From Escherichia phage T5, in sequence record AY587007.1: a DNA stretch of 64,000 bases; one strand, given 5' to 3'. Every line of letters begins with the position of its first letter. Within the stretch, counting starts at the first letter, position 1. Of the stretch, positions 12,480-64,000 are shown piece after piece. Made by a program: the position numbers and the translations under genes. A model generated the notes under the pieces. The model searched no databases. It was not told the DNA's origin and was given only the letters and a program-made list of their open reading frames with translations.

Positions 12480-13366
12480 GTCGAATAACAGAATTACTTG
12501 ATCTTAAGGGAATTGAGTATAAAGATACTGGTGGAGATATTTTAATCTGTTGTCTCAATCCAGATCATGACGATAAACACCCAAGTTTGCGTATTGACCC
12601 TGAAACAGGTATTATGCACTGCTTGAGTTGTGGCTTCGGTAAAGGTATACCGAGCATTTACCATTATTTTAATGAGACTCAGTACCGACAGTCCCCAAGG
12701 CTATCGCAAGTACGTAAAAAGATTTCAGAGATTAGGAATGGATCAACGAATCTTGCAATTCCTGAATCTGCTTACCTTTTCGAAGGTGATTTCCGAGGTA
12801 TAAGTTCTAAGACCTTGAAGAAATATTTTGCTTTCCAACACCAAGCAGACTGGGAAGGCAGAATTGTATTCCCAATCACAGATGCTGTTGGACGCAATAT
12901 CCTATTTTTGGGTCGTTCTATAAACAGTTCTGCCCCTCCTAAATACTTAGTAAAACCAAAACAAGTTTCACCACCAATTTTTCCTGTACGATATAATACT
13001 CCGGTTCTTATTCTAGTTGAAGGCATCTTTGATATGCTGAACCTAGAGGATAATGGTATAGACTATGCTTCTTGCTGCTTTGGTACACATCAGTTTACTT
13101 CGGATAACATTGCAGATAAGTTCAGTCCTTATATTATTGCCGGTGTAAAAGTTGTTGTTATCTTACTAGATAATGATGCTTCTGGTAATAAAGCTGCACA
13201 AGCATTGGCCCAGCTAATTCGTACCAAAACGCGTTTAACACCTGTAGTTGCTAACTTTCTTCTGCCTGAAGGTAAAGACCCGGGTGACTTAAATAAAGAA
13301 GAGATTGATACGTTAGCCAAACGTATTGAAATTTTAGTTGCTGAATCGCTTAAAGATTTGGTATAA
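12476..13366 (+). CDS. DnaG-type DNA primase
   Basis: 296 aa; CHC2 zinc finger CCLNPDHDDKHPSLRIDPETGIMHCLSCGFGKG; Toprim-like LVEGIFDMLNL and VVVILLDNDASGNKAA. Confidence 0.8.
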   Translation: MSRITELLDLKGIEYKDTGGDILICCLNPDHDDKHPSLRIDPETGIMHCLSCGFGKGIPSIYHYFNETQYRQSPRLSQVRKKISEIRNGSTNLAIPESAYLFEGDFRGISSKTLKKYFAFQHQADWEGRIVFPITDAVGRNILFLGRSINSSAPPKYLVKPKQVSPPIFPVRYNTPVLILVEGIFDMLNLEDNGIDYASCCFGTHQFTSDNIADKFSPYIIAGVKVVVILLDNDASGNKAAQALAQLIRTKTRLTPVVANFLLPEGKDPGDLNKEEIDTLAKRIEILVAESLKDLV

Positions 13367-52758: not shown

Positions 52759-52992
52759 ATGAAAAAATTATTTTTAGCTATGGCAGTGGTACTTCTTTCG
52801 GCTTGCTCTACTTTTGGACCTAAAGATATTAAATGTGAGGCATACTATATGCAGGATCATGTGAAATATAAGGCTAATGTTTTTGATAGGAAAGGGGATA
52901 TGTTTTTGGTGTCACCAATTATGGCCTATGGATCTTTCTGGGCCCCCGTAAGCTACTTTACCGAAGGAAATACATGCGAGGGAGTTTTCTAA
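52759..52992 (+). CDS. llp: lipoprotein, Llp-like (receptor-blocking lytic conversion protein)
   Basis: 77 aa; signal peptide with lipobox LLSAC; divergent from the receptor-binding protein gene. Confidence 0.7.
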   Translation: MKKLFLAMAVVLLSACSTFGPKDIKCEAYYMQDHVKYKANVFDRKGDMFLVSPIMAYGSFWAPVSYFTEGNTCEGVF

Positions 52993-53155
52993 GTAAAAAC
53001 CACCTTAGTAACCATCACCACTTAAGATGAACCTAGTGCAGAATTAGTTCAGGATACCACACAAGACACTATGGAAGGTGTGATGGGAATATTTACACTA
53101 ATCACTGCAATTGCTAGAGTATTTTAAATACCACACTTATAGGAGCATGAAAGAT

Positions 53156-53284
53156 ATGTCAAACAAAAGAAAGAGCAGACGTGGAGAAGTGTACGATAGC
53201 TGGATTAATAGCTTTGGATTAGGAACTATTTTATTCTTTATTTTCGTAGGTTTTTGGTTAGCAGCTATGGCGGGGTGGATTTAA
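53156..53284 (+). CDS. small membrane peptide (42 aa)
   Basis: Below track threshold; ATG 53156 with AGGAG 10 nt upstream; MSNKRKSRRGEVYDSWINSFGLGTILFFIFVGFWLAAMAGWI has one predicted TM helix; stop overlaps the next start (TAATG). Confidence 0.35.
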   Translation: MSNKRKSRRGEVYDSWINSFGLGTILFFIFVGFWLAAMAGWI

Positions 53285-53391
53285 TGGAATGGGTAATTAT
53301 TGCGTTGCTAGGGGTTGTGATTATTGGACAATGTATTTTAGATAATCACTTAGCTAGAATTGAAACTTTATTAACGGAGAAGCGTAAATGA
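53284..53391 (+). CDS. small membrane peptide (35 aa)
   Basis: MEWVIIALLGVVIIGQCILDNHLARIETLLTEKRK; N-terminal TM helix; ATGA overlap with the next ORF. Confidence 0.35.
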   Translation: MEWVIIALLGVVIIGQCILDNHLARIETLLTEKRK

Positions 53392-53582
53392 TGGAAGTAG
53401 TAGCTATAATAACAGTAATACTAGTCTGGGCAATTTTCATTGCTTCTTGCACCGTGTACGTTCGCCTAAAAACTCTAGAAGCTCAAGTAAAACAACAACA
53501 ATTTGCTATAGAAAAATTAGTAGAACTCCAACGTTGTGATAGCATTCGTATTCTGCAAATTGAGAGGGAATTAGATGTTTAG
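53388..53582 (+). CDS. small membrane protein (64 aa)
   Basis: Track ORF; N-terminal TM helix VVAIITVILVWAIFIASCTV followed by a coiled-coil-like tail. Confidence 0.45.
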   Translation: MMEVVAIITVILVWAIFIASCTVYVRLKTLEAQVKQQQFAIEKLVELQRCDSIRILQIERELDV

Positions 53583-53820
53583 CATTATAGTTGCTTTTAT
53601 TATCGGAATAATCGCGGGAGTTTTCGGAATGACTGCGGCTATTAACAAGCATCGTAAATACATTGCGGAAGTATCGCGGGAGATTGCGGAAAGGGAGCGG
53701 AAGTTTGACGAAAAACGTGCGGAGTTTGAGCGGGAGTGGTCGGACGGTTCTCGGGCGTCGCGGAAGAGATTCCGTGAGTTCAGACCAAAATACGGAGTTG
53801 ATGACCATTCTATGCGCTAA
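53575..53820 (+). CDS. small membrane protein (81 aa)
   Basis: Track ORF; N-terminal TM helix IIVAFIIGIIAGVFGMTAAI followed by a charged Arg/Glu-rich tail. Confidence 0.45.
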   Translation: MFSIIVAFIIGIIAGVFGMTAAINKHRKYIAEVSREIAERERKFDEKRAEFEREWSDGSRASRKRFREFRPKYGVDDHSMR

Positions 53821-53930
53821 TTGGGAAATCTCGAAATTTCATAAGATTACACATGAAGGTGTGTCCACTGCCTCCGGCGAAAATACTTAGTCTGCTAACC
53901 GCCACCCCCGTTACTATTACCATGCTAACT

Positions 53931-53967
53931 GTTTCACCCTGCAACCATTTTAATTGCAGGGTGAAAC
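53931..53967. other. stable hairpin (14-bp perfect stem) between convergent genes
   Basis: GTTTCACCCTGCAA / TTGCAGGGTGAAAC with 9-nt loop; no U-tract on either strand. Confidence 0.5.
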
Positions 53968-53984
53968 AATTTCAACTTTAATTA

Positions 53985-54719
53985 TTACGCAACTTTTAAT
54001 TTCTCAATATATTGTTGCGGGCTGCAACTATATTCTGCGCGTTCTTCTTCGGTCATACCTTCCCAACATAATTGCAGGCGGTCGGCTAGGAACTGATAAT
54101 CATTATCATCCTCAAGAGATTCATCAATAAAGGTTTCACCTATCAATGTCACGCCGATTGATAGAATATCATTAACGGCTTGTGCGTCCAGCGTTTTAAA
54201 TCCGTATGACGCTGCCGCTGATAGCACGCCTTTATGATCATCAATCATTGTAAAATCAGCGTTCGGATATAATTGTTTGAATAGCCCAAAATAGTAACTT
54301 TTATAAACTGCGTCTTTGCTGTGGTATATCTCGCTAACTTTATCAGCCTCAAAATATTTGTGTAGTGTATCGCGGGAAAATACACGGATATTACTATCAC
54401 CACGACCGCGCAACCCTTGTTTACGCAAATAATAATAGTCCGACTTGCTCATTAGTCGAGCGGTGCAAATAATGTTTAAAGTATTTGCGTCATTCATGCA
54501 CTGGCGCATATATGTAACAAGGGGCAATAGTGTATCTTGCATTATTAAATCATGTTTGCAGGCTTCATTTTTATACTTATTTAAATCTAAATTGCCCTCG
54601 CTATCAAAGCAAGGCGCTACACGATGAAACGAATTAATGATAGTGCCGTCCAGATCCCAAATCATGACGCGGGAAATATGCGGGAAATTACGGGTAATAT
54701 TCGTTTTAACTTGATTCAT
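53985..54719 (-). CDS. dmp: HAD-family 5'-deoxyribonucleotidase (Dmp-like)
   Basis: 244 aa; HAD motif I IWDLDGTII near the N-terminus; first gene of the minus-strand pre-early block. Confidence 0.7.
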   Translation of the reverse strand: MNQVKTNITRNFPHISRVMIWDLDGTIINSFHRVAPCFDSEGNLDLNKYKNEACKHDLIMQDTLLPLVTYMRQCMNDANTLNIICTARLMSKSDYYYLRKQGLRGRGDSNIRVFSRDTLHKYFEADKVSEIYHSKDAVYKSYYFGLFKQLYPNADFTMIDDHKGVLSAAASYGFKTLDAQAVNDILSIGVTLIGETFIDESLEDDNDYQFLADRLQLCWEGMTEEERAEYSCSPQQYIEKLKVA

Positions 54720-54799
54720 TTTGTTACGTTCTCCATTTGAGGGATTAGATTAATTCAGCATTACCCGCTATTAAATAGCGGGTAATAATAAATTAACTA

Positions 54800-55195
54800 T
54801 TAAAGGCCATACGCTAGCGCATCAGCGATAAAACTAACATCCTCGCCCGATACGCTGGAACGAATGCCAGCGCATGTATACACCTTTGCGCTCATTAGCT
54901 GATCATCAAGGCAAGCGGGGCAAGGTGCGACTACTGCGAAAGCTAAACCGGATTTTACCGCGTCAATAATGATTGTTTCCTGTTTCATAGTGTCAACATA
55001 AACACCTTTTGCTTTAATATGGCTTGTTAGTTTGCCCTGCATATATGCAAACGTTGTAACTTGCATCGCGTCATTGAAATCTAATAGCTCATCAATAACG
55101 TGACCGGCCTCGACGTGATAACGCTGACCATTAGAATAAACCAGAACAATAGAAGACTGAGCGCGATCGAATGGGATACGGTTAGATTTAGCCAT
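54800..55195 (-). CDS. hypothetical pre-early protein
   Basis: 131 aa; contains a PCPAC motif but no convincing family assignment. Confidence 0.45.
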   Translation of the reverse strand: MAKSNRIPFDRAQSSIVLVYSNGQRYHVEAGHVIDELLDFNDAMQVTTFAYMQGKLTSHIKAKGVYVDTMKQETIIIDAVKSGLAFAVVAPCPACLDDQLMSAKVYTCAGIRSSVSGEDVSFIADALAYGL

Positions 55196-55231
55196 GTTTA
55201 TAACTCCAATTAGTTTAATAAGGGATTTAAT

Positions 55232-55510
55232 TTATTTGCTAGCTTCAAGACTTACAACAAAAGCGAGATTTGTTTCTTTCCATACGTCAGGAATATCATT
55301 TTCCTGTAAATGGTCTTTCGCTTCATACTCATTTTCAAAAGAATAAAAATCGCCGGACTCAATTATATAAATATGCCCGTTTAGTTCATTTTGATAAATA
55401 TAACAATTATTATCTTTTAAATTGCGGTATACAGTACCATGCCGTAAAACATCAAGCGACCATGTATCAGCGGTGTTTTTCATGCTGGGAAGATTAATTT
55501 TAATAGCCAT
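55232..55510 (-). CDS. hypothetical pre-early protein
   Basis: 92 aa between the A1-like and 131-aa genes. Confidence 0.4.
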   Translation of the reverse strand: MAIKINLPSMKNTADTWSLDVLRHGTVYRNLKDNNCYIYQNELNGHIYIIESGDFYSFENEYEAKDHLQENDIPDVWKETNLAFVVSLEASK

Positions 55511-55566
55511 TTAATTTAGCTCCTGTAATAGCGGCTATATCTCAAGCCGCTAGGGGAATAATTTAA

Positions 55567-57150
55567 TTACGCAAAGAATTTACCATTCTTAAAGTCAATC
55601 AAAGTGCGTTGACCGTTTGCATAGGTAATAATATGCGTTTGAGTCCAGCTAGACGCGCCAACGTTGTAACCCATGTCCAGACTACCAGTCACGCCAGCGG
55701 TATAAACGCCGCCGTAAATGCTGGCGGTGTGGGTGTGTCCGGTGTTTAATTTGCCCAATTTCTTAAACTGTTTCGGGTTGCCACGGCTCCCGTTAATGCC
55801 GTTGTGACCGTGTACGCCGCATTCAATGCCTGCAATCTTGAAAGATTGGTCAGTGGTCAGGAAAATGGCGTTAAATTCACAGCCTGCAACCTTGCGCAGC
55901 GCATAATCAAGCACGTTAAAAGTATCGTCTTTTTCTGCAATAGCTCCATAAATCGCAGCATTCAGGCGGTGATATAGTTCCGCGTTTGCTGGGTCGTCTT
56001 TAATGTTAGCATTACGATCATCTAACCAGCGGGATAGCGCCAGATCATGATTAGATTCAACAATGATTGTTTGAGAAAAATCACGCTCCATTGATTCCAG
56101 TACGCGCCCCGTATCGATAAGATCATCTAATACCTTATCACGTCCGGCGGCATATTGTTTCGCTAGGAATACGCCAGATGCGCGGTTGTGATGGTTGCGT
56201 GATGTAAAATCATGCACGTCGTGTACAAACTGATATTTTGGTTTAAGAATATCAACAAGCCCGTAGGTGTCACCATGCCCCCAAGACGCAGCGGCGCACT
56301 CCTCATCTAATTTTTCAGCGTGAATGTCGCCATATTGTAAACCTAAAACGTGCCCCGTTGTTTCATAACATCCGGCAGGAGTGGCGCAAGTATTCAAATC
56401 ATAAAACACGCCGCTCTCGTCCATCGTTTCAAGCTGGCGCACAAAAAACTCACCGTCCTCGTCAAACTCAACAATAAGCGCACCGAAGTTATGCAGCGCC
56501 TCGGCCTTTTGTCCTGCTTTCTGCTGGATGTAATTTTTTAGCGTTGCCGTTCCGGTTGAATACATACGGCGCACAATTTCACCTTTTAAAGCTGGCACGC
56601 TTTCGGCGGTGATTTTAGCCGCTCCAATTGCTAGACCTTCAAGATTCAGCGCGGTTGCAGTTTCAGCGAATCCAGAAAGCGGATAATCTGCGGTGGGTAA
56701 AACGTTAATTTCAGCCATGAAAGCAAATCGGCGATTATTTAAAAACACGTTTTTATTGCAGATATATTTGTCAAATGCGGAATCGTATCTGATACCGTCG
56801 GCGCCCTCGCCATTTTGAAAACCGTTTTTGTTATAGATAAACTTGCTAACCAGCAAATCAGCGCCGATAAATTGGGCGTATTGTTCAAGTGAGGCTAAAA
56901 AGTTTTTATGCGGGAACGTATTATTCTGAATCGATGTAATAATAAAGCGTTTACCTTGTTTTACTTCCCATTGCTCAACCGTGCTAGAAACAATCCCCGC
57001 CGCTTCTGGGCGCTCATCGTTTTTAATGGCTTTTGCTACTTTCGCCGCTTTCGGTTTCGCTGGTTTATTTGCTTCCAGCCAGTCACAAATTGCGGTAGAG
57101 TGTTTTGTTGTATCGTAAACCATTTTTGAAATATCGTCGCAAACTTCCAT
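55567..57150 (-). CDS. A1: metallophosphoesterase-family pre-early protein (A1-like)
   Basis: 527 aa from ATG 57150; phosphoesterase motifs GDIHAE, ESNHD, GVHGHNG, TGHTHTAS; an upstream ORF with a good RBS overlaps in another frame (see findings). Confidence 0.75.
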   Translation of the reverse strand: MEVCDDISKMVYDTTKHSTAICDWLEANKPAKPKAAKVAKAIKNDERPEAAGIVSSTVEQWEVKQGKRFIITSIQNNTFPHKNFLASLEQYAQFIGADLLVSKFIYNKNGFQNGEGADGIRYDSAFDKYICNKNVFLNNRRFAFMAEINVLPTADYPLSGFAETATALNLEGLAIGAAKITAESVPALKGEIVRRMYSTGTATLKNYIQQKAGQKAEALHNFGALIVEFDEDGEFFVRQLETMDESGVFYDLNTCATPAGCYETTGHVLGLQYGDIHAEKLDEECAAASWGHGDTYGLVDILKPKYQFVHDVHDFTSRNHHNRASGVFLAKQYAAGRDKVLDDLIDTGRVLESMERDFSQTIIVESNHDLALSRWLDDRNANIKDDPANAELYHRLNAAIYGAIAEKDDTFNVLDYALRKVAGCEFNAIFLTTDQSFKIAGIECGVHGHNGINGSRGNPKQFKKLGKLNTGHTHTASIYGGVYTAGVTGSLDMGYNVGASSWTQTHIITYANGQRTLIDFKNGKFFA

Positions 57151-57277
57151 TTAGTAGCGCGCAGACGTTTACCGTAGAAATTAAAGTCAGCGGCCATTTT
57201 CAGGATAACGGTTTGTTTTTCTGCGGAAATAACCATAATAATAAAACTCCATTAAAGGGATTAAAAAACGTTTGTTA

Positions 57278-57293
57278 TTGGCAATATTGCCAA
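57278..57293. promoter_or_regulatory. perfect 16-bp palindrome TTGGCAATATTGCCAA (operator-like)
   Basis: Exact inverted repeat read directly, in the intergenic region upstream of the A1-like gene. Confidence 0.4.
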
Positions 57294-57332
57294 ATATAAC
57301 GCCTTGAATAATAGGCGTTATAATTTGCAACA

Positions 57333-57530
57333 TTAATTTAAAGGCATAAGGCTAGAACTAACACCACAAGCAACGGCGGCAATAAAACAAATCAGACCTA
57401 AACGCTTTGCTAACTTAGATTTACGTTTAAAATAATACGAATCTAAATCATTTTGAAAATAAGCGAACAATAACGAGGCCGCCATAATAAACAAGCCTAG
57501 AATGAGGGATTCAGTAGGGTAAAAGATCAT
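57333..57530 (-). CDS. small membrane protein
   Basis: 65 aa with two hydrophobic segments (LILGLFIMAASLLFAYF and LGLICFIAAVACGVSSSL). Confidence 0.4.
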   Translation of the reverse strand: MIFYPTESLILGLFIMAASLLFAYFQNDLDSYYFKRKSKLAKRLGLICFIAAVACGVSSSLMPLN

Positions 57531-57586
57531 TTTAAAACTCCAGTCAAAGGGAAATTATAGTGGGGAATATTCCCCACTAATTAAAT

Positions 57587-57994
57587 TTATTCGCCTGCGG
57601 CTTGTTTTACTTCATCGGCAACGCCTAACAGTTGCGCCACGGCGTCCAGCGTTTCCAATTTTGCACTTTCCAGTGATGCCAGATCGTCAGCGTCTTTGAT
57701 AATACCGGAATCGATGGCATGTTTTGCAATCACACGCACGTAGTGCGCTTTGCGGATAGAACTGCCGCCGCCAACCTTGCGAGGTTTATCGCTTTTCTGA
57801 TACGCTTTCGCGCTGGTCAATTTTGAGCGAACAGACACGGGAGAAGCCGCGCCAACTGCTTTTGCAATCTCTTTTAAACCGTCGCTATTTGCGAAATCTA
57901 AACCGTTTTCATTAATTAACTGCTGGTACATGGAAACAGCTTTCTGAGTGTTTTCTTCATTCCAAGCGAATTTTGCGGTTTTAGCGTTAGTCAT
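57587..57994 (-). CDS. A2: A2-like DNA-binding pre-early protein
   Basis: 135 aa directly upstream of the A1-like gene; motif SPVSVRSKLTSAKAYQK resembles the repeats in ORFs 6493-6903 and 9629-10396. Confidence 0.5.
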   Translation of the reverse strand: MTNAKTAKFAWNEENTQKAVSMYQQLINENGLDFANSDGLKEIAKAVGAASPVSVRSKLTSAKAYQKSDKPRKVGGGSSIRKAHYVRVIAKHAIDSGIIKDADDLASLESAKLETLDAVAQLLGVADEVKQAAGE

Positions 57995-58089
57995 GATGTA
58001 ACTCCTGTTTATTTAATTTAAGGGATAAGATTAACATAATGTTAATCGTTATATCCCCCGAACTACTGGGGGATATAAAAGTAACACTA

Positions 58090-58341
58090 TTACGCTACGG
58101 CTTCCCATTTTTCGTTACGCTGGGCAACCTTTACAACGTCGCCGGATTTAACCCGAACGTTGTAAACAGTTTTTCCGTTGTTACTCCGTTCCGTTTCAGC
58201 GTATACCGCATCAATTACATCAAACGGCATAAGCGCCGCGCCTTTAATGCGTTCGGTTTTTCCGGTTACCTCATCCGTTTTAGTAACGAAAGGGATAAAA
58301 ACGGATTGACCAATTTTTGGCGCAGTAGTAACGTTTTGCAT
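58090..58341 (-). CDS. hypothetical pre-early protein
   Basis: 83 aa; GGAG about 13 nt upstream of the ATG. Confidence 0.4.
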   Translation of the reverse strand: MQNVTTAPKIGQSVFIPFVTKTDEVTGKTERIKGAALMPFDVIDAVYAETERSNNGKTVYNVRVKSGDVVKVAQRNEKWEAVA

Positions 58342-58574
58342 AATATAAACTCCAGTTTATTAAGGGGGATTGTTCCGCATTACCTGCTGTAAAAGTAGTG
58401 GCAGGTAATAAGCAACAATCCGCTCGCCAATATAATCAATTTAAAGAACTCCACTCAGGCCGCTATATCCCAGTTAGGGGGCGGGACACATTATGGTAAG
58501 TGCCGACCGTCATATTTTATCAAGTTATCGCTCTCATCGAACTGGGTACATCTTAAAGCCTATCGGCTAGGGTG

Positions 58575-58778
58575 TCAAACTATTTTTTGCAGTTTTTTAT
58601 GATTTTCTTTCAAGTCAATCATAATGTTTCGCCAGATCATTTCCAGACCTTGCTGGCGGCCTTTCTTGTACTGCCTAAATCGATATTTTACCGATTGCTG
58701 GGCTATTGTCAACAATTTTTTAGTAGTACCATCTAATTTTTTAGCTGGTTTACCAGTGATCAATAAAGTTTGTTTCAT
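58575..58778 (-). CDS. hypothetical small basic protein
   Basis: 67 aa, Lys/Arg-rich; AAGGA upstream; weak support. Confidence 0.3.
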   Translation of the reverse strand: MKQTLLITGKPAKKLDGTTKKLLTIAQQSVKYRFRQYKKGRQQGLEMIWRNIMIDLKENHKKLQKIV

Positions 58779-59329
58779 ATCGTCGATTCCTTATAATATA
58801 TAAGTTTACCGCCGATAGACTTTAAGATGTACCCAATTTTTAAAGAGCGTGGCGGTAAACTTCCCGCCGTGTAGTTCGTCATTGCCGCCCTACGAGATAA
58901 ATAATAGGGGATACCCAAAAATGGCGCAACCTTATTTTTGTAAAGAAACGTAAAGAAGGCAACACGTCCGGCGCTCACCTAAGTTTAAAGGAAACGGGCG
59001 CGCGAATACCATAAAACCTAGCAGGTTGGCAAGTAATTTTTTCCTTTATATTTGCCTTGCCCTAGTTGACAAATCTTAGAAAGCTCGTGGTGACGATAAA
59101 CGGGTTATCCCCTTATGATGGGATGCCTGAAAAATTTACCGCGTCAGAAAGCGTTTTAGGCGGCTTATTTTCGATTTAACAAATATTTAACAAAAGCAAA
59201 ATTGAAAAATAGTTGGAAAAGATATTGACTTTTAAAAATCAAGACTAAACGAGTTATTTTATAAAATTAATTAATTGACAATTCCAAATTCAGCTTTTTT
59301 AGTTTCTACCCATAATAATAACTCTTGTA

Positions 59330-59714
59330 AATCATAACCTGATTTACTAACACTTTTGTTACTAGTAGGATCTTTAACTATAGCGCGCAAATAGTTTCTT
59401 CCGGTTATTATCAACTCTAGAACCATTATAATAGATATGCTTAGGCAACTTATTAGCACGGTTACGATCATTATGATCGATTGTTAGATTGCTATCAATC
59501 TCACCATTAAATAATACCCATATTATTCTATGCACTGCGTATGTTCGCCTGCTAACTTTACTCGATAGTAACCTGTGTTACTATAATGCCCTGCAATATC
59601 ACCCACCTTACTATTACCTTTCTGTACTTTCCATCTTAGAAATGATGGGGATGTTTCATCATAATAAAAGTTATCATTAGCAAGCGAATAATCTATATCT
59701 TTAAATAGACCCAT
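59330..59714 (-). pseudogene. decayed HNH-type homing endonuclease remnant
   Basis: Track ORF 59523-59714 has a homing-endonuclease-like N-terminus (ETSPSFLRWKV...GYYRVKLAGEH) and stops early; an HNH-like segment (LTIDHNDRN...RVDNNR) continues in another frame at about 59390-59520. Confidence 0.45.
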
Positions 59715-59883
59715 TGTTATAGTTTCCTTATGTTATTAATTTAATCTCTATTATATTATATCAAAACCATTAGCAAACTACCTAATGAGTTTTTCAGGTT
59801 TAATTAGCAGACTCATAATCACTTTAAAATCCTATTAGCCAACTAACTATATTTTGTTATATAATAACTGCATAAATTAGTTA

Positions 59884-60013
59884 GTGAGAAACACTATCAT
59901 TTAAGTTATCCACAGCCTTATACATTTTGTAAATTAACTTGACACAATAGGAAGGCTTTATAGCACTTTTACACAGACTTATCCACAGGTTATTCCACTG
60001 TATAAATATACAG
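59884..60013. repeat. left arm of a ~130-bp inverted repeat pair (two DnaA boxes plus an SOS-box-like palindrome)
   Basis: TTATCCACA at 59906-59914 and 59979-59987; CTGTATAAATATACAG at 59998-60013; outer and inner segments are near-exact reverse complements of 63193-63322. Confidence 0.75.
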
Positions 60014-60277
60014 GGTAAATGGAAGACATATTATAATGATGCCCAAAATAAGCGGCCTAAAACGCTTTCTAACGAGCCAAACGCTATAGGGTAATATTAA
60101 AGTAAAGCCTCACGCGTCGCCTGGTGGCTTCGCCGTGTTTTGCTCTTTACTATACCGCTGCGCGGTTAGCATAAAACTAGGCGCTAGGCAAGGAAAATAA
60201 AAAGGTAAAATAATATTTGCCTATGCTAGAAAATTACCTTTATCATTCACTCACCGATTAACGAGGGAGGCCAACAA

Positions 60278-61015
60278 ATGCGGCTATATAAACCAGATAA
60301 CGCAACCGTCTTAAAGGGCGCCTTGCGCAACCTGCTGGATGGTAGCAGGACAACCAGCATTAAACATTTTATTAACAAGGCTGAAACTATTCACCAAAAC
60401 TTTTTTAATGATTATGATGCCTATGATATGGATAGTTTTCTACCCCTATATAAGCAGGGGGCAACGATTATCTTATATAATCGTGATTGCCATATCTTTA
60501 CGGGCAGGGGAGCGGGGCCGGATACTGATTTTATTGTTGCGCAGGGTAATAATATCGTTGCGTATCATAGCAATTCAGGCCGTCAATCATTTAATATAAA
60601 TAATTTTGAGCTTGTTGGGCTTGAATTAATAAACGGACTTTCTAGCCTTGAGGGATTTTTAGATGTTATCTGGAAGTATTTATCTGCTGGATGGCATAGA
60701 CCTGATAGTGATGGATCTCAATATACGGCTGTAATGGCTTTTGATGGCGACGGTAATTTTTTATTACCATCGGAATTATATCCGTATGTATATAATGAGC
60801 TAGTACAAGAAGCGGGTTTTATTTTCTGGAAAGATGAGAATCAGATCATTGACAACACGGAAAAACATGCTGTAAATTCTAACACTCAAAGCGTTAACAC
60901 TCAAATCACTGAAAACAAAGGAAAAAATGCCATGACCAAGATCGCTAATATCGTTGCCGCTAATAAATCCGCCGTTGTAAATGCTGCAAAACTGGAAGCG
61001 GGCAAATTGCATTAA
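60278..61015 (+). CDS. hypothetical protein (first gene of the inverted-repeat-bracketed operon)
   Basis: 245 aa; GGAGG 7 nt upstream of the ATG. Confidence 0.5.
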   Translation: MRLYKPDNATVLKGALRNLLDGSRTTSIKHFINKAETIHQNFFNDYDAYDMDSFLPLYKQGATIILYNRDCHIFTGRGAGPDTDFIVAQGNNIVAYHSNSGRQSFNINNFELVGLELINGLSSLEGFLDVIWKYLSAGWHRPDSDGSQYTAVMAFDGDGNFLLPSELYPYVYNELVQEAGFIFWKDENQIIDNTEKHAVNSNTQSVNTQITENKGKNAMTKIANIVAANKSAVVNAAKLEAGKLH

Positions 61016-61053
61016 CTCAAATCACGAAAGTAGCGGCTAAAAAAGCACCATTT

Positions 61054-61287
61054 ATGATTAAAGGTTATATTGATACGCCTATTGGTCGGGTAGTTATTGC
61101 TAACCTGCTGAGCGTAGCGGTTGACCAGTACGCCCCTAGCAACCAAAAGGCGAAAGCGGTAGCGGGTGCAGCTATGGAAGCGGCTATGCTAGAAATGGTG
61201 CAAAGTTTTAACATCGCTGAAATGATTGATGAAATGGTGAAAGGTATTGATATTTCTACTTTTACCGTTAACACCGAAAGCGAGTAA
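61054..61287 (+). CDS. hypothetical protein
   Basis: 77 aa track ORF; weak RBS. Confidence 0.35.
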   Translation: MIKGYIDTPIGRVVIANLLSVAVDQYAPSNQKAKAVAGAAMEAAMLEMVQSFNIAEMIDEMVKGIDISTFTVNTESE

Positions 61288-61405
61288 TAATTAACCTAAT
61301 GTAAAGTTTTGTAAAGGTCGCCATAATCGGCGGCCTTTTTTGTTATAATGCCTTTACACCGTTTGAGGACGGTTGAAAATTTTCCCAAAATTTTGGAGGC
61401 TTAAA

Positions 61406-61636
61406 ATGGTTGCTTATTCTTCTTCTGACGCTCTTTTCACTGGAAAAGGCTGGGTATCAAATCGCTGGATCATTCAAGAAATGGTGCAGGAGTTCGGCAT
61501 TGCTAAAACTTACACTACCATTCAGGCGCTTTATGATAATGATCAAATCGATCAGCAAACGGCGGGCTTTTCGCTGGATACCCTGAAAGCGGAACACTGT
61601 ACTAAAAAACAAGCCGCCAAAATTGTTTTAATGTAA
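61406..61636 (+). CDS. hypothetical protein
   Basis: Trimmed from track ORF 61373-61636 to ATG 61406, which has GGAGG 6 nt upstream. Confidence 0.45.
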   Translation: MVAYSSSDALFTGKGWVSNRWIIQEMVQEFGIAKTYTTIQALYDNDQIDQQTAGFSLDTLKAEHCTKKQAAKIVLM

Positions 61637-61685
61637 TTAATAACGGGGCGTTACTTTCGCCCCACTAACTAGGGGAGTATTACAA

Positions 61686-61865
61686 ATGGTTATTTTTCGA
61701 GCTATTCTGGCAGGTATCTTGGGCGCTATTCTGACCCTTTTTGCTACCGCTTACGGTATTCAAGATTCTTATTGTGGTTTAGTAAATACTAAACCTATGG
61801 TTATTATTGGCGCGGGTATCGCTGTATTTTCTTATCTGCTGGGCTGCATGAATAAAGGAGAATAA
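61686..61865 (+). CDS. small hydrophobic membrane peptide (59 aa)
   Basis: Below track threshold; MVIFRAILAGILGAILTLFATAYG...MVIIGAGIAVFSYLLGCMNKGE has two hydrophobic helices; its stop region carries the RBS of the next gene. Confidence 0.4.
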   Translation: MVIFRAILAGILGAILTLFATAYGIQDSYCGLVNTKPMVIIGAGIAVFSYLLGCMNKGE

Positions 61866-61867
61866 AA

Positions 61868-62080
61868 ATGATCCGCAACGTTTCTCTTGCTCGTTCAAAG
61901 GGTTTTAAGCTGGTGGATGTTAACACATTCGAGCGGGAAGATTGTAAAATCGAATATGTAGCACGTAATAAAAACGCCTTTCGTGTTACAGAAAAGAAAT
62001 TTGATAAGCGCGGCAACGTGATAGCTGAAACGGTTAAACATTTTGCCACCTTTTACGCGGCTTTTCGTGGAGTGTTATAA
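61868..62080 (+). CDS. hypothetical protein
   Basis: 70 aa; AAAGGAG RBS upstream. Confidence 0.45.
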   Translation: MIRNVSLARSKGFKLVDVNTFEREDCKIEYVARNKNAFRVTEKKFDKRGNVIAETVKHFATFYAAFRGVL

Positions 62081-62081
62081 A

Positions 62082-62426
62082 ATGGTAATTTATGAAGGCA
62101 ATCGCTTTGTTGCTATTTGCCGACCGGGATTATTAGCAAACTACTTAAATCAGGTGTCACCTGAATATAAAGGCGTCATTAATATTTATGAGGGCAAGGC
62201 GCATTATAAGATTAATGCGGTCGTTGCCCGTGAATTAGCATTTCAATTTTTGACTTTCGCATCTTGTGATATTCAGGTCATGGGTGAAGCGTTAATTGCA
62301 GAAAATGAAGATGATTTTATTAATATCTTCCGCAAGGTATACACCGAGCGCCTGATAATGAAAGGCGCATATATTCAGTCAACTGCGGAAAGTATTGAAA
62401 CAGCTTTCAGAAAGGTGGCGCAATGA
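62082..62426 (+). CDS. hypothetical protein
   Basis: Trimmed from track ORF 62043-62426 to ATG 62082, directly after the upstream stop; GGAG 9 nt upstream. Confidence 0.45.
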   Translation: MVIYEGNRFVAICRPGLLANYLNQVSPEYKGVINIYEGKAHYKINAVVARELAFQFLTFASCDIQVMGEALIAENEDDFINIFRKVYTERLIMKGAYIQSTAESIETAFRKVAQ

Positions 62427-62518
62427 AGCTATATATTTTCGTTGGTAATGTTGAGGCTGCGAATGATTCCGCTGGTGGCGATAACGTTCGCCACTATTGG
62501 CAAAAATATATTTACTAG
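62423..62518 (+). CDS. hypothetical small peptide (31 aa)
   Basis: ATGA overlap with the upstream gene and AGGTGG RBS; weak evidence. Confidence 0.25.
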   Translation: MKLYIFVGNVEAANDSAGGDNVRHYWQKYIY

Positions 62519-62525
62519 GGTTATT

Positions 62526-62720
62526 ATGATTACACTGATTTGCGTTAAAGCCGAAGGCGACACGATAGCGCGAGAAGGGCAAAAATATAAAGCCCAAAAA
62601 GATCAATTACTCAAAACAATTGAGCGTTACAAAATACCCGATCTCAAGTATTCCGTAGTAGGACGCGATGGGATTCTAAGGGCGACACTTGAGAACGCTA
62701 TCTTTGAGATAGTCAACTAA
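62526..62720 (+). CDS. hypothetical protein
   Basis: Trimmed from track ORF 62442-62720 to ATG 62526. Confidence 0.35.
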   Translation: MITLICVKAEGDTIAREGQKYKAQKDQLLKTIERYKIPDLKYSVVGRDGILRATLENAIFEIVN

Positions 62721-62735
62721 TAACGGGGCGTTATT

Positions 62736-62939
62736 ATGAGCAATAAAATTATTGTGACCAAAACTACCACAATGGTAGACGTTTTTTATGTGCCCGATAC
62801 GCCGGAGAATCGGGGAGCGGTCGAGCGGGGCGAGTATGATAGCGTTATTTATGATGCCGATGGTTATTATCAGCATTTGGTCGATTCCTACGGGGAAGAG
62901 GAGAAGATCACGCATCGATTACCCGAGGGGGATTTATGA
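62736..62939 (+). CDS. hypothetical acidic protein
   Basis: 67 aa track ORF. Confidence 0.45.
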   Translation: MSNKIIVTKTTTMVDVFYVPDTPENRGAVERGEYDSVIYDADGYYQHLVDSYGEEEKITHRLPEGDL

Positions 62940-63049
62940 AACGATGGTTTAATCACTGGTATAAACGGTTTTTAGTACGGCATCGCAAGTCTAGACAGCA
63001 AGATGATTGGCGGGAAATGGCCAAGCGTAACAATTGCCCACTTCTCTGA
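62936..63049 (+). CDS. hypothetical small basic peptide (37 aa)
   Basis: ATGA overlap with the upstream ORF; followed directly by a terminator. Confidence 0.3.
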   Translation: MKRWFNHWYKRFLVRHRKSRQQDDWREMAKRNNCPLL

Positions 63050-63055
63050 TAACCG

Positions 63056-63078
63056 ACGGGGATCAGCTCCCCGTTTTT
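63056..63078 (+). terminator. rho-independent terminator closing the small-gene operon
   Basis: ACGGGGA-tcagc-TCCCCGT hairpin followed by TTTTT. Confidence 0.65.
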
Positions 63079-63192
63079 CACGCCTCCAGTTAAATCCCCC
63101 TTTGTTTTAGTATCCCCATCAAAATTAAACGCGTTAGAATGCGATCTAGGACGTTTTAGGCATATATTAGAATTATTCACTGCGTAGGAATA

Positions 63193-63322
63193 CTGTATAA
63201 ATATACAGTAGGATAACCTGGGGATAAGTCTGTTGATAACGCTTCAAAATGGCTAGGATTTTGTCAAGGCGAATCGTGCTGTTGATAAGTCTGTGGATAA
63301 CTTAAATAACAGTGTTTCTCAC
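63193..63322. repeat. right arm of the inverted repeat pair (DnaA boxes plus near-consensus SOS box)
   Basis: TGTGGATAA at 63292-63300; TGGGGATAA at 63219-63227; TGTTGATAA at 63231-63239 and 63280-63288; CTGTATAAATATACAG at 63193-63208 within TACTGTATAAATATACAGTA (63191-63210). Confidence 0.75.
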
Positions 63323-63327
63323 TTCCG

Positions 63328-63491
63328 TTTTTAAATACGAATCATTATCATTCGTATTCCGCTTTTTAAATGAGAATCATTCCGCTTTTTAAATGAGAAT
63401 CATTTCACTTCCTGAATAGTTCTCATTCCCTTTCTTAAATGAGAATCATTATCATTTGCATTTCACTTTTTAAATGAGATTGATTCTCATT
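63328..63491. repeat. array of five direct repeats of ~19 bp (TTTTTAAATGAGAATCATT)
   Basis: Copies begin at 63328, 63363, 63386, 63431 and 63467 with spacings of 23-45 bp; two copies extend into palindromes. Confidence 0.75.
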
Positions 63492-63543
63492 ATCATTCGC
63501 ATTCAGGCGAGCAGGCAATTGCCCTGCGCTTTTGTGCAAATCC

Positions 63544-63766
63544 GACATTTGCCCCCATGGATTACGCGTGGGCGTGTATGTGCAAATCCGACAATTTTTG
63601 GTAGTGTGCGAATCCGACCCGAAAAATTTTTATAGTGTGCAAATCCGACAATGAATTTTCCCAAAAACTCCAGCAATCACGAACTGCGTTCGAATCCTGT
63701 GGAATTAGCTAGAGTATGTGCAAATCCGACATGTGTTGAGATGTGCGAATCCGACAAGATTTTTGT
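63544..63766. repeat. array of six to seven direct repeats of 14 bp (GTGC[A/G]AATCCGAC[A/C])
   Basis: Copies at 63544-63557, 63590-63603, 63616-63629, 63647-63660, 63728-63741 and 63753-63766, plus a degenerate copy near 63689-63700; all in the same orientation. Confidence 0.75.
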
Positions 63767-63769
63767 GAC

Positions 63770-63960
63770 TTCGATGGGAGGGTGTGTGATTGTATGGGTT
63801 TGAGGGGAAGATGAGAGAGCGAGAGAAATTTGGGAGGCTAGAAGGATATGGGCGCAGGATTGGTGCGGAGCACCTGATTTGCGGGGATTTTGGGGAAGAG
63901 TTGAGATAATTTGGGAAGATTTGAGATAGGTGCAGAAAAAGTAAAATTTTATTAGCTAAA
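63770..63960. other. purine-rich, cytosine-poor tract with short TTTGGGA(A/G)G / TTTGAGATA repeats
   Basis: Plus strand is almost entirely G/A/T over ~190 bp; the minus-strand track ORF here is a low-complexity artefact. Confidence 0.5.
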
Positions 63961-64000
63961 GGGGGCAAAATAGCTTGACAAGTGAAAATTTCTGTGGATC

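Follow-up and report, generated by a model that had tools for sequence, protein, structure and literature searches.

The stretch of phage T5 DNA between the receptor-blocking lipoprotein gene llp and the right terminal repeat contains four very short open reading frames (ORF1–ORF4), and the question raised by this locus is whether they are genes and, if so, what their products do in the infected cell. The window examined here is a stretch of 64,000 nucleotides (GenBank accession number AY587007.1), in which each position equals that in the record AY543070 minus 57670, and the region was 100% identical to the phage T5 sequence. The four frames correspond to the coding sequences T5.159–T5.162 in AY543070/NC_005859 and to orf1–orf4 of X75922, the 1994 llp record that is their first database entry. 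Since 2004 they have been annotated as "hypothetical, single transmembrane domain". They are already catalogued T5 genes, and no new feature is added here. The initial annotation of this DNA was made from the letters alone, for four genes that had been in the databases since 1994, and the coordinates and sizes it gave (42, 35, 64 and 81 aa) were all exact. The features of the locus, in window positions, are as follows.

52759–52992, forward strand: llp (T5.158), lytic-conversion/receptor-blocking lipoprotein gene, annotated in AY543070, NC_005859 and X75922
53072–53128, forward strand: 18-aa mini-ORF MEGVMGIFTLITAIARVF, probable remnant of a longer Eps7-like upstream ORF
53092–53120, forward strand: candidate internal sigma-70 promoter for ORF1–ORF4 (TTTACA, 17 nt, TG-c-TAGAGT)
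53141–53145, forward strand: Shine-Dalgarno sequence AGGAG of ORF1, 10 nt ahead of the ATG at 53156
53156–53284, forward strand: ORF1 (T5.159), 42 aa, tail-anchored miniprotein, universal core gene
53284–53391, forward strand: ORF2 (T5.160), 35 aa, N-terminal transmembrane (TM) helix, then a short ...DNHLARIE... helix
53388–53582, forward strand: ORF3 (T5.161), 64 aa, N-terminal TM helix and coiled-coil-like helix, accessory gene
53506–53808, antisense: open frame of 100 aa
53575–53820, forward strand: ORF4 (T5.162), 81 aa, universal core gene
53862–64000 (window end), no strand: right terminal repeat (AY543070 repeat_region 111532..121750)
53930–53968, no strand: 15-bp perfect hairpin between ORF4 and dmp (RNA fold of 53815–53990, z = -3.0)
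53985–54719, reverse strand: dmp, pre-early deoxynucleoside-5'-monophosphatase gene, convergent to ORF4

The llp gene is located upstream of ORF1–ORF4 in the same rightward transcription unit, and its product matches the profile of phrog_1119 ('Cor superinfection exclusion') at E 1e-19. Its stop codon is 164 nt from the start of ORF1, and the right terminal repeat starts 42 nt past the stop of ORF4.

Conservation of the reading frames across relatives had been named beforehand as a check, and it brought no refutation, as intact frames of the four ORFs recur in 31 distinct related loci. The block was found in about 445 T5-like phage genomes; for comparison, Markadamsvirinae-type TerS records number about 441. 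Purifying selection acts on each of the four frames (median dN/dS 0.10–0.35). Such frames could be spurious, open by chance in an AT-rich spacer that precedes the terminal repeat and codes for nothing, given that they are very short (two are below 45 aa) and that the antisense frame of 100 aa shows that openness can come from composition. However, selection is frame-specific: in a six-frame analysis at ORF4, dN/dS was lowest in the sense frame (0.24), stood at 0.34 in the antisense frame whose wobble positions coincide with those of ORF4 and was approximately 1.0 in the four others, including 1.03 in the frame of the antisense ORF. In addition, the starts, stops, Shine-Dalgarno motifs and overlaps are conserved (31 loci, about 445 genomes), and the locus is transcribed in Bas33. 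The likelihood of chance openness is negligible, this reading being refuted by the frame conservation and the dN/dS values, and T5.159–T5.162 are almost certainly real genes for membrane miniproteins. The antisense ORF was also considered as an overlapping gene and was rejected because of its dN/dS, because the antisense frame stays open in 32% of cases when ORF4 is recoded at random with synonymous codons, and because ORF4 contains no Leu codons.

Each protein gave a full-length profile match to its own family, but the four differ in layout and in prevalence. ORF1 consists of a basic head, MSNKRKSRRGEVYDSWINS (residues 1–19), followed by a C-terminal TM helix (about residues 20–41), with only four residues after the helix and an invariant C-terminal end, ...FWLAAMAGW. 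It matched phrog_8596 (E 3.8e-32), was found in 447 phage records and in 31/31 distinct loci, and has the lowest median dN/dS (0.10). A GGAG/GGGG motif ahead of ORF1 is kept in all 31 loci, and the Eps7-like phages do not keep the alternative ATG at 53148. ORF4, matching phrog_6447 'membrane protein' (E 6.7e-47) and present in 443 records (median dN/dS 0.23), is composed of an N-terminal TM helix, an E/K/R-rich helix to about residue 68 and a mosaic disordered tail. The TM region includes the invariant pattern FIIG..AG.FG..AINKHR.Y, the structure predicted with AF2 is a single helix over residues 2–68 (pLDDT 67), and beyond residue 67 there are at least five alternative C-terminal tails across relatives.

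The genes between these two are more variable, with 0–3 copies of ORF2/ORF3-type genes per relative. ORF2 matched phrog_6369 (E 1.4e-26) and was present in at least 188 records and 29/31 loci (median dN/dS 0.15). In 35 records a 51-aa paralogue, ORF2b, is inserted between ORF1 and ORF2, and it is the only member of the group that is clearly related to ORF2. ORF3, which matched phrog_5851 (E 1.2e-31), was found in 303 records and 21/31 loci; its identity in the Eps7-like phages is just 37–40%, its median dN/dS is 0.35, its C-terminal end ...ERELDV is invariant, and its profile similarity to ORF2 is weak (hhalign 61%). A second ATG in ORF3, at 53391, is the start chosen in X75922. An 'IASC' motif raised the possibility of ORF3 being a lipoprotein, which was ruled out, as C21 is replaced by Y or R in relatives.

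ORF1 and ORF4 were found in 30/30 of the loci other than T5, while a T5-type llp was present in only two of these 30. ORF1–ORF4 are unchanged whichever llp/receptor-binding cassette the phage has, and they always follow immediately on the receptor-blocking gene, of whichever type that gene is. They sit on the conserved flank of a swappable receptor-binding-protein/llp cassette, at a locus that also includes homing-endonuclease insertions. Within Markadamsvirinae the core of ORF1 and ORF4 is universal, and ORF2, ORF2b and ORF3 are variable. Of three distant members of the Demerecviridae that were compared, analogues were found only in Klebsiella phage GZ8 (Sugarlandvirus), which has ORF3/ORF4-like genes in the corresponding position and no llp. 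In Vibrio phage JSF10 no small genes are annotated at that position, a comparison made on the annotation only, and in Pectobacterium phage DU_PP_V it is occupied by a different, non-membrane gene set.

The four genes had been described as translationally coupled small single-pass membrane protein genes adjoining llp, joined by TAATG and ATGA overlaps. The first two junctions are as described, with TAATG at ORF1/ORF2 (overlap 1 nt) and ATGA at ORF2/ORF3 (overlap 4 nt), while that of ORF3 and ORF4, which the text of the initial annotation did not mention, is an 8-nt overlap, ATGTTTAG. A GGAG-type Shine-Dalgarno motif precedes each of the four starts. Across the 31 loci the junctions have Shine-Dalgarno motifs and the same overlaps as in T5, or equivalent ones, with a single exception, a locus (L019) with a shortened ORF3 and a gap of 16 nt ahead of ORF4. 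Where a gene is missing, the junction formed in its place (ORF2/ORF4, ORF1/ORF3 or ORF1/ORF4) again has an overlap with a Shine-Dalgarno motif. Overlap or close spacing, a Shine-Dalgarno motif inside the upstream gene and conservation of both in relatives are the features expected of a coupled operon, and all were observed. T5.159–T5.162 are predicted on this basis to be translationally coupled, and the conserved frames, overlaps and Shine-Dalgarno motifs bear out the description as far as the sequence can.

In the spacer between llp and ORF1 neither a terminator scan nor RNA folding found a terminator or stable structure. The candidate sigma-70 promoter in this spacer matches the consensus at 9/12 positions and has an extended -10 TG, and a TAGAAT/TAAAAT -10-like box is kept at the same position across lineages with otherwise differing spacers. 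The 18-aa mini-ORF overlaps this promoter-like box and was considered as a fifth gene. It is probably a remnant of an Eps7-type ORF, since Eps7 AGC_0169 (104 aa) and TrudiRoth bas30_0203 (62 aa) include ...VMVRAIARIFQIPGLQEKQR... at its position, and it is absent from DT57C/BF23-type spacers. Downstream of ORF4, the 15-bp hairpin is present in the centroid structure and is annotated as a repeat_region in X75922; it has no canonical U-tract and was not called by the terminator scan. It is likely to mark the 3' end both of the llp–ORF4 transcript and of dmp.

Published RNA-seq data for the relative Bas33 at 20 min include values of 219/127 TPM for llp, 162/137 for ORF2b, 462/408 for ORF3 and 22/13 for ORF4 (PMC13250531 Dataset S1), and these fall to about 0 when only the first-step-transfer DNA is expressed (PMC13250531). 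The values for ORF1 and ORF2 in the same data are about 1 TPM (PMC13250531 Dataset S1), which we assume to be a read-assignment problem, as these genes are shorter than the 150-nt reads. T5.159–T5.162 are transcribed rightward from second-step-transfer DNA.

One TM helix had been claimed for each protein, and a single strongly hydrophobic window of 19 residues was indeed found in each (mean Kyte-Doolittle 2.2–2.7). An N-terminal TM helix followed by a charged tail, also claimed for all four, describes ORF2–ORF4; in ORF1 the order is reversed, with a basic N-terminal head and a C-terminal helix. At each TM helix, the K and R residues are concentrated on the side of the soluble part (5 vs 0, 0 vs 4, 0 vs 7 and 0 vs 18 for ORF1 to ORF4, respectively). 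By the positive-inside rule, on which the topology is based, it is fairly likely that all four are inner-membrane proteins with cytoplasmic soluble parts and a periplasmic exposure of no more than about four residues. This rule can mislead for short bitopic proteins, as in the case of lambda Rz. Invariant residues within the membrane include G11/G15/G18/A22 in ORF4 and the ...FWLAAMAGW of ORF1.

Scans of Pfam, PHROGs, NCBIfam and PADLOC, a sequence profile search of the PDB and a word-indexed search of 5.8 billion proteins with ORF4 and ORF3 returned only proteins of T5-like phages or sub-threshold compositional matches. With the ORF4 profile, an HMM search run exhaustively against 1.84 billion representatives recovered five clusters, all of them T5-like, and homologues of ORF1–ORF4 appear to be confined to the T5-like phages. 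ORF4 scored below the cut-off for LapA_dom (PF06305; 22.5 vs 28 bits), ZapG-like (PF06295; 16.4 vs 33.5 bits) and FtsL (NF049847; 16.2 vs 50 bits), and its likeness to these families is compositional and architectural, not homology. Only llp matched the Cor/Llp lipoprotein family phrog_1119, and ORF1–ORF4 contain neither a basic n-region with a lipobox nor a conserved signal peptide. T4 Imm, Sp, Cor, SieA and the other exclusion families in Pfam, PHROGs and PADLOC gave no match to ORF1–ORF4 at E ≤ 1. For the i-spanins the single match was to phrog_739 at E 0.32, and the tails of ORF1–ORF4 (16–62 aa) are predicted to be cytoplasmic; no holin or antiholin family in Pfam or PHROGs was matched. 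A spanin or holin identity was rejected, the lysis genes of T5 being elsewhere; its Rz-like pair, T5.044/045, lies close to lys and to the holin gene.

A search of the literature by locus tag recovered no paper mentioning T5.159–162, nor do the portions of the BF23, BASEL, Davison and HIDEN-SEQ papers covered here contain anything on these genes. No published expression or deletion data on exclusion by ORF1–ORF4 were found in the literature search. In a CRISPRi-ART screen all four were scored 'Not Fit' (PMC11879866 supplementary file 16). These negatives are weak because the late-region genes T5.151, T5.152 and T5.154 received the same score (PMC11879866 supplementary file 16). T5.159–T5.162 appear to be dispensable in laboratory infections.

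The reading that we prefer begins with a single mRNA, either the llp transcript or one starting at the conserved -10 box just upstream of ORF1, from which it is fairly likely that the four proteins are made in fixed ratios. They would then fairly likely insert in the inner membrane so that every soluble part lies on the cytoplasmic side, and their conserved, small-residue-rich TM helices may pack to form a hetero-oligomer, to dock on a host inner-membrane protein, or both. That the four form a complex is, on balance, probable. Such a complex could serve the infected cell as an accessory 'conversion' function, complementing Llp from the side of the inner membrane. In function it would resemble T4 Imm and HK97 gp15, in that the membrane would resist a second injection of DNA or the damage that accompanies injection. 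Which outer-membrane receptor the phage uses would make no difference to it, and it would not be needed when laboratory E. coli is infected by a single phage. An exclusion or immunity-type role of this kind is offered tentatively. Adjacency to llp argues weakly for it, as the receptor-binding-protein/llp cassette is exchanged independently of the ORFs, and the positional analogues in GZ8 exist without any llp; the proteins also resemble neither T4 Imm, Sp, Cor and SieA nor any family of PADLOC, Pfam or NCBIfam, and almost nothing of them is predicted to be periplasmic, unlike the blockers of the HK97 gp15 type. The initial annotation had put forward exclusion or membrane modification as the possible role, a suggestion that stays tentative here. 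Because of the receptor-independence, the GZ8 analogues and the predicted exposure of no more than about four residues, any exclusion role would be played at the inner membrane, or on the cytoplasmic side of it, and not at the receptor, where Llp acts. A more specific form of the proposal, in which the ORF1 and ORF4 core with variable ORF2/ORF3-type subunits makes up a hetero-oligomeric inner-membrane machine specific to T5-like phages, acting either as a receptor-independent immunity/resealing complex that guards the DNA-entry route or as a cytoplasm-facing regulator of the T-type holin, is unlikely as it stands.

The proteins may instead be host-takeover modulators that tune or inhibit host inner-membrane proteins by TM–TM packing and play no part in phage exclusion, the candidate targets including a transporter, a respiratory or PMF-related complex, FtsH, or a division or envelope-synthesis enzyme. 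The small membrane proteins AcrZ, MgrB, MgtS and phiX174 E all act on membrane proteins through such packing. ORF1–ORF4 are likewise bitopic and small (35–81 aa), with conserved intramembrane residues and predicted cytoplasmic tails; they are expressed from second-step-transfer DNA alongside early genes and do not depend on receptor type. The other runs of small single-TM early genes in T5 (T5.020/021 and 030/031) suggest a general strategy, and the sub-threshold matches (LapA_dom at 22.5 bits, ZapG-like and FtsL) are all to bitopic cytoplasm-facing proteins. However, each of those matches is below its curated cut-off, CRISPRi-ART detected no fitness effect, and the region could be cloned intact in 1994 (X75922), a sign that it is not strongly toxic. 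We consider this alternative doubtful but worth keeping in view.

Regulation of lysis timing is a less probable function, in which ORF1–ORF4 would be cytoplasm-facing, antiholin-like partners of a T4-type holin that delay or sharpen lysis. The T5 holin, T5.041, is a true member of the T-type (PF11031, 396 bits), the T5 spanins are PseT.3/PseT.2-like, and in T4 a holin of this type is controlled by two small proteins dedicated to it, RI and RIII. Typical partners of holins are small and bitopic, with small-xxx-small motifs in their TM helices, and a CRISPRi survival screen would miss a defect in timing. Against this, ORF1–ORF4 are about 90 kb from the lysis cassette, and they resemble neither RI, RIII nor any holin/antiholin PHROG, the match to phrog_739 being the sole one related to lysis. 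To our knowledge, T5 is also not known for lysis inhibition.

It is improbable that the four are anti-defence factors directed against effectors of abortive infection or exclusion that act at the membrane and come from the host, its prophages or its plasmids. They are conserved yet apparently dispensable on K-12, they belong to lineage-restricted ORFan families with variable copy number and a mosaic ORF4 tail, and the homing-endonuclease insertions mark a recombination hot spot. However, dN/dS values of 0.10–0.35 and near-invariant TM segments are unlike arms-race evolution, the distribution of the core genes is universal, not patchy, and none of the searches suggested a target system.

A place in the virion or in tail assembly is barely credible: apart from the nearby pb5 gene it draws on GenBank/UniRef labels given to homologues of ORF3 and ORF2/4 ('tail assembly protein', 'tail fiber protein'), which look like propagated automatic annotation, while Pfam, PHROGs and NCBIfam lend no support, the PHROGs category is unknown function, transcription is divergent from pb5 and together with the early gene llp, and we know of no single-TM miniprotein that serves as a tail chaperone. 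Tail-assembly identity is effectively refuted. In the part of the source covered, mass spectrometry of BF23 virions and the earlier T5 virion studies cited with it report only the expected structural proteins and a few enzymes (PMC10644984).

ORF1 and ORF4 are found in essentially every T5-like genome, in the lineage of a classical model phage, and the four genes have been listed in the databases for three decades with no function assigned to them. If they encode an inner-membrane counterpart of Llp, a regulator of the holin or inhibitors of host membrane proteins, this would be a new small-protein mechanism in phage–host biology, with relevance to the engineering of T5-like therapeutic phages. 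The outcome is a well-defined and cheap experimental target, and the correction of some misleading database labels.

Among known systems, PHROG families 8596, 6369, 5851 and 6447 are the same genes as T5.159–T5.162, with no difference between them. Llp/Cor shares the direction of transcription and the early 'conversion' module with ORF1–ORF4, but Llp is a secreted, acylated outer-membrane lipoprotein and ORF1–ORF4 have no conserved lipobox or signal peptide. T4 Imm and Sp, small membrane proteins that a virulent coliphage expresses early, act at the envelope or inside it to protect the infected cell, beside other exclusion functions. They are a functional analogy only, with no sequence or family match, and Imm has two predicted TM segments and acts alone, whereas T5-like phages have two to five coupled single-TM proteins with predicted cytoplasmic tails. 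HK97 gp15, a prophage moron, spans the inner membrane once and stops DNA from passing, whatever the outer-membrane receptor. It is not homologous to ORF1–ORF4, and it exposes a domain to the periplasm, where the T5 proteins are predicted to expose about four residues or fewer. T4 RI and RIII (82–97 aa) are dedicated to the class of T-type holins that T5, like T4, possesses; ORF1–ORF4 have no sequence similarity to either and are far from the lysis cassette, and RIII has no TM helix and the functional domain of RI is periplasmic. The bacterial small inner-membrane regulators and bitopic proteins AcrZ, MgrB, MgtS, KdpF, LapA/YciS, ZapG/YhcB and FtsL have a size class and one TM helix in common with ORF1–ORF4, and the likeness is one of helix packing with larger membrane proteins and of charged helices that face the cytoplasm.

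A 1.3-kb query spanning ORF1–ORF4 was 100% identical to Escherichia phage T5 (GenBank accession numbers AY543070/NC_005859; record position equals window position plus 57,670), where the ORFs are annotated CDS, each with the note 'contains single transmembrane domain'. The four ORFs are not new, as they are included in PHROGs and covered by a genome-wide knockdown screen, and were annotated in 1994 as orf1–orf4 in the llp/oad/dmp record (X75922). The gene order is pb5/oad (minus strand), llp (plus), ORF1–ORF4 (plus), the start of the right terminal repeat (53862) and dmp (minus), a pre-early gene convergent with ORF4. The coordinates, lengths and tight packing in the initial annotation were all correct, as were the TAATG (1 nt) and ATGA (4 nt) overlaps, to which a third junction missing from its text, ATGTTTAG (8 nt), can be added.

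53156-53284, plus strand, ORF1 (T5.159), 42 aa
53284-53391, plus strand, ORF2 (T5.160), 35 aa
53388-53582, plus strand, ORF3 (T5.161), 64 aa
53575-53820, plus strand, ORF4 (T5.162), 81 aa

The 665-nt block matched 445 phage records in blastn, every one T5-like (Tequintavirus and Epseptimavirus). Using tblastn, ORF1 was found in 447 records, ORF4 in 443, ORF3 in 303 and ORF2 in at least 188, the last an underestimate because the 35-aa query reaches just E 6e-7 against itself; for comparison, the Markadamsvirinae-type small terminase is in about 441. Frames were intact, with starts and stops kept, in the 31 distinct loci analysed in detail. Median pairwise Nei-Gojobori dN/dS values (median dS 0.3–0.7) were 0.10, 0.15, 0.35 and 0.23 for ORF1 to ORF4, respectively, with ORF4 restricted to residues 1–67. 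When all six frames of ORF4 were compared, the annotated frame was lowest (0.24), four others were at 0.97–1.20 and the antisense frame sharing the ORF4 wobble positions was at 0.34. A GGAG-like Shine-Dalgarno motif precedes each start, the overlaps of 1–8 nt are kept in relatives, and in loci without ORF3 or ORF2 the replacement junction is again TAATG with a Shine-Dalgarno motif of its own. The reading frames, for which conservation in relatives had been proposed as a check, are clearly conserved, and the evidence says that ORF1–ORF4 are genes.

A 100-aa ORF on the minus strand across ORF3/ORF4 (53506-53808), the codon-aligned antisense frame of ORF4, was rejected as a gene. It is open in all relatives (64–105 codons) but evolves neutrally (dN/dS 1.03; sense frame, 0.24), and when ORF4 was recoded at random with synonymous codons, 32% of the recodings were also stop-free in this frame. 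It is a by-product of the Leu-free, E/K/R-rich composition of ORF4. In Eps7, a CDS (AGC_0171) is annotated on the strand antisense to ORF4.

Each protein has a single strongly hydrophobic 19-residue window (mean Kyte-Doolittle 2.2–2.7). The N-terminal TM helix and charged tail described for all four in the initial annotation hold for ORF2, ORF3 and ORF4, but ORF1 is tail-anchored, with a basic head (MSNKRKSRRGEVYDSWINS) and a TM helix at the C-terminal end, beyond which there are just four residues. Lys/Arg counts on either side of the helix are 5 versus 0, 0 versus 4, 0 versus 7 and 0 versus 18 for ORF1 to ORF4, and by the positive-inside rule all of the soluble parts are predicted to be cytoplasmic, with about four residues at most reaching the periplasm. 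An AlphaFold2 model of ORF4 is one helix (residues 2–68, pLDDT 67) followed by disorder. ORF3 contains 'IASC' (residues 18–21, 53439-53450), which matches the lipobox pattern; a lipoprotein was rejected and the match considered a coincidence, as a basic n-region is lacking and relatives have Tyr or Arg in place of the Cys.

Among the 31 loci, ORF1 and ORF4 were present in all, ORF2 in 29 and ORF3 in 21. In 35 phage genomes, including Bas33, a fifth coupled membrane ORF of 51 aa (MEWVIIGIFVLL...RIETLLEERK), ORF2b, separates ORF1 from ORF2. ORF2b is a clear paralogue of ORF2 (hhalign 95%), indicating that the module grows by tandem duplication. The ORF2 and ORF3 profiles were weakly similar (61%, E 8e-5), and those of ORF3 and ORF4 unrelated. 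Together with the presence counts, these similarities suggest that the module consists of a universal ORF1 and ORF4 core plus zero to three copies of an ORF2-type subunit. Homing endonuclease insertions were found upstream of ORF1 (falkor and fetched locus L028) and downstream of ORF4 (mar003J3 and Bas33). Falkor lacks ORF2 and ORF3, and its ORF1 seems to be shortened at the N-terminus, starting with GTG.

L019 and L021 (fetched loci), 2555-2710, and L039 (Bas33), 1501-1656, ORF2b
L009 (fetched locus), 1967-2509, HNH/homing endonuclease gene in the small-gene module
L007 (fetched locus), 2932-3429, HNH/homing endonuclease gene in the module
L039 (Bas33), 2235-2774, HNH/homing endonuclease gene in the module

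ORF3 of T5 is just 37–40% identical to that of Eps7-like phages, and the invariant C-terminal ...ERELDV overlaps the ORF4 Shine-Dalgarno motif and start codon. In ORF4, the invariant TM/juxtamembrane residues are F8 I9 I10 G11, G15, F17 G18, A22 I23 N24 K25 H26 R27 and Y29, and the C-terminus (residues 68–81, 53776-53817) is a mosaic, with at least five unrelated tails beyond residue 67 (EFRPEHRFDDPSMR, MSESGDKPVDRRSS, KIDGKS, ADSVSSPK and AKVSDEE). DNA similarity between lineages usually ends at about query position 620, which suggests a recombination breakpoint at the terminal-repeat junction.

Neither a terminator nor a stable structure was found in the llp-ORF1 spacer. A TAGAAT/TAAAAT box is kept at the same spot upstream of ORF1 across lineages with otherwise unrelated spacers, and because of this -10-like box and the lack of a spacer terminator, ORF1–ORF4 may be read from the llp promoter, their own promoter or both. 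An 18-aa hydrophobic mini-ORF in the spacer (MEGVMGIFTLITAIARVF, 53072-53128), whose conserved DNA coincides with the box, is the counterpart of ...VMVRAIARIF... in a 62–104 aa ORF of Eps7-like phages that overlaps the ORF1 start in a different frame; the T5 mini-ORF is probably a remnant. The 3' ends of transcripts are probably marked by a hairpin in the gap that separates ORF4 from the convergent dmp, though this hairpin lacks a U-tract, is therefore not a canonical intrinsic terminator and was not called in a terminator scan. Its position, just within the right terminal repeat, also puts it about 70 nt from the left end of the genome.

53092-53120, sigma-70 promoter candidate 35 nt upstream of ORF1, 9/12 match (TTTACA, 17 nt, TGcTAGAGT, extended -10)
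53930-53968, hairpin, perfect 15 bp stem, 9-nt loop

Published RNA-seq data collected 20 min after infection with the Tequintavirus Bas33 (PMC13250531, Dataset S1; gene mapping verified) include the whole module.

TPM in two untreated replicates of Bas33 (rep 1 / rep 2; PMC13250531)
bas33_0192, llp-type gene, 219 / 127
bas33_0191, ORF1, about 1
bas33_0190, ORF2b, 162 / 137
bas33_0189, ORF2, about 1
bas33_0188, ORF3, 462 / 408
bas33_0187, ORF4, 22 / 13

The near-zero values for ORF2 and ORF1 (108 and 129 nt) are most likely a read-assignment effect, as both genes are shorter than the 150-nt reads and flanked by well-covered genes. When daunorubicin limited expression to the first-step-transfer genes, TPM from llp to ORF4 were all essentially 0 (PMC13250531). 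It is solid that ORF1–ORF4 encode bitopic inner-membrane miniproteins and are conserved and co-expressed as a set. In a transcriptome-wide CRISPRi-ART screen of T5, T5.159–T5.162 were all 'Not Fit' (scores -3.9, -3.6, -4.1 and -3.6; KS p 0.24–0.91; PMC11879866, supplementary file 16), so no measurable contribution to laboratory E. coli infection was seen. This negative is weak because the late-region genes T5.151, T5.152 and T5.154 were also 'Not Fit'.

A T5-type llp was found in only two of the 30 non-T5 loci, all of which contain the ORFs. This fits published statements (PMC10644984) that T5 and BF23 differ in the RBP-llp cassette while the modular locus around it is otherwise preserved. In Klebsiella phage GZ8 (Sugarlandvirus), no llp-like lipoprotein was found at the equivalent position, where there are two adjacent bitopic membrane ORFs.

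L037 (GZ8), 2208-2897, minus strand, ORFs of 74 and 153 aa between the RBP gene and the terminal repeat

The 74-aa protein (TM and coiled coil) has marginal similarity to ORF3 (hhalign 78%); homology of the 153-aa protein (TM, charged helix, disordered tail) to ORF4 was not detectable. At this position, no small genes are annotated in Vibrio phage JSF10 (annotation only), and the genes in Pectobacterium phage DU_PP_V are unrelated and non-membrane. Because the ORFs persist without a T5-type llp and GZ8 has analogues without a lipoprotein, their function is not linked to any one receptor, nor to Llp.

Given the conserved coupling of translation and TM segments that are invariant and rich in small residues, it is reasonable that the four proteins would form a complex and/or assemble onto a host membrane protein, with cytoplasmic tails. 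An exclusion or membrane-modifying role was hypothesised in the initial annotation. We tentatively rank first, at well under even chances, a receptor-independent 'conversion/immunity' role in which the complex would act at the inner membrane and complement Llp, because their position in the early llp unit does not vary and the genes appear dispensable in single infections. That the proteins instead modulate host inner-membrane proteins is only slightly less probable. Small hypothetical early genes with a single TM also lie back to back in pairs at T5.020/021 and T5.030/031 (T5 record 12510-12928 and 15542-15987), so membrane-miniprotein arrays recur in the early regions of T5 and are not confined to the llp locus. 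The locus is of modest interest: for a model phage it offers a tidy target that would be cheap to study experimentally, with no surprising feature.

Each of the four proteins matched only its own uncharacterised PHROG, and nothing in Pfam or NCBIfam exceeded curated thresholds; for ORF4, bit scores against cut-offs were 22.5 versus 28 (LapA_dom), 16.4 versus 33.5 (ZapG-like) and 16.2 versus 50 (FtsL). A search of 5.8 billion clusters returned T5-like phage proteins only (81 clusters for ORF4, 223 for ORF3), and an exhaustive ORF4 profile search of 1.84 billion representatives found five clusters, all of the same family. PADLOC and PDB sequence searches were empty or non-significant. An anti-defence role is improbable. 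Many ORF3 homologues carry the label 'tail assembly protein', and the names 'tail fiber protein' or 'H-N-H endonuclease' are attached to some ORF2/ORF4 homologues (e.g. SP15, OSYSP, PS3-1 and UniRef clusters); no family evidence was found for these labels, which look like propagated mis-annotations. T5 encodes an endolysin (T5.040), a T-type holin (T5.041; PF11031, 396 bits) and Rz-like spanins (T5.044/045), and as lysis functions are assigned to these genes, ORF1–ORF4 were ruled out as holin or spanins; that they regulate the holin is improbable. Lysis and exclusion are the two main known roles of such proteins in other virulent coliphages, and this also places the 'conversion/immunity' role first.
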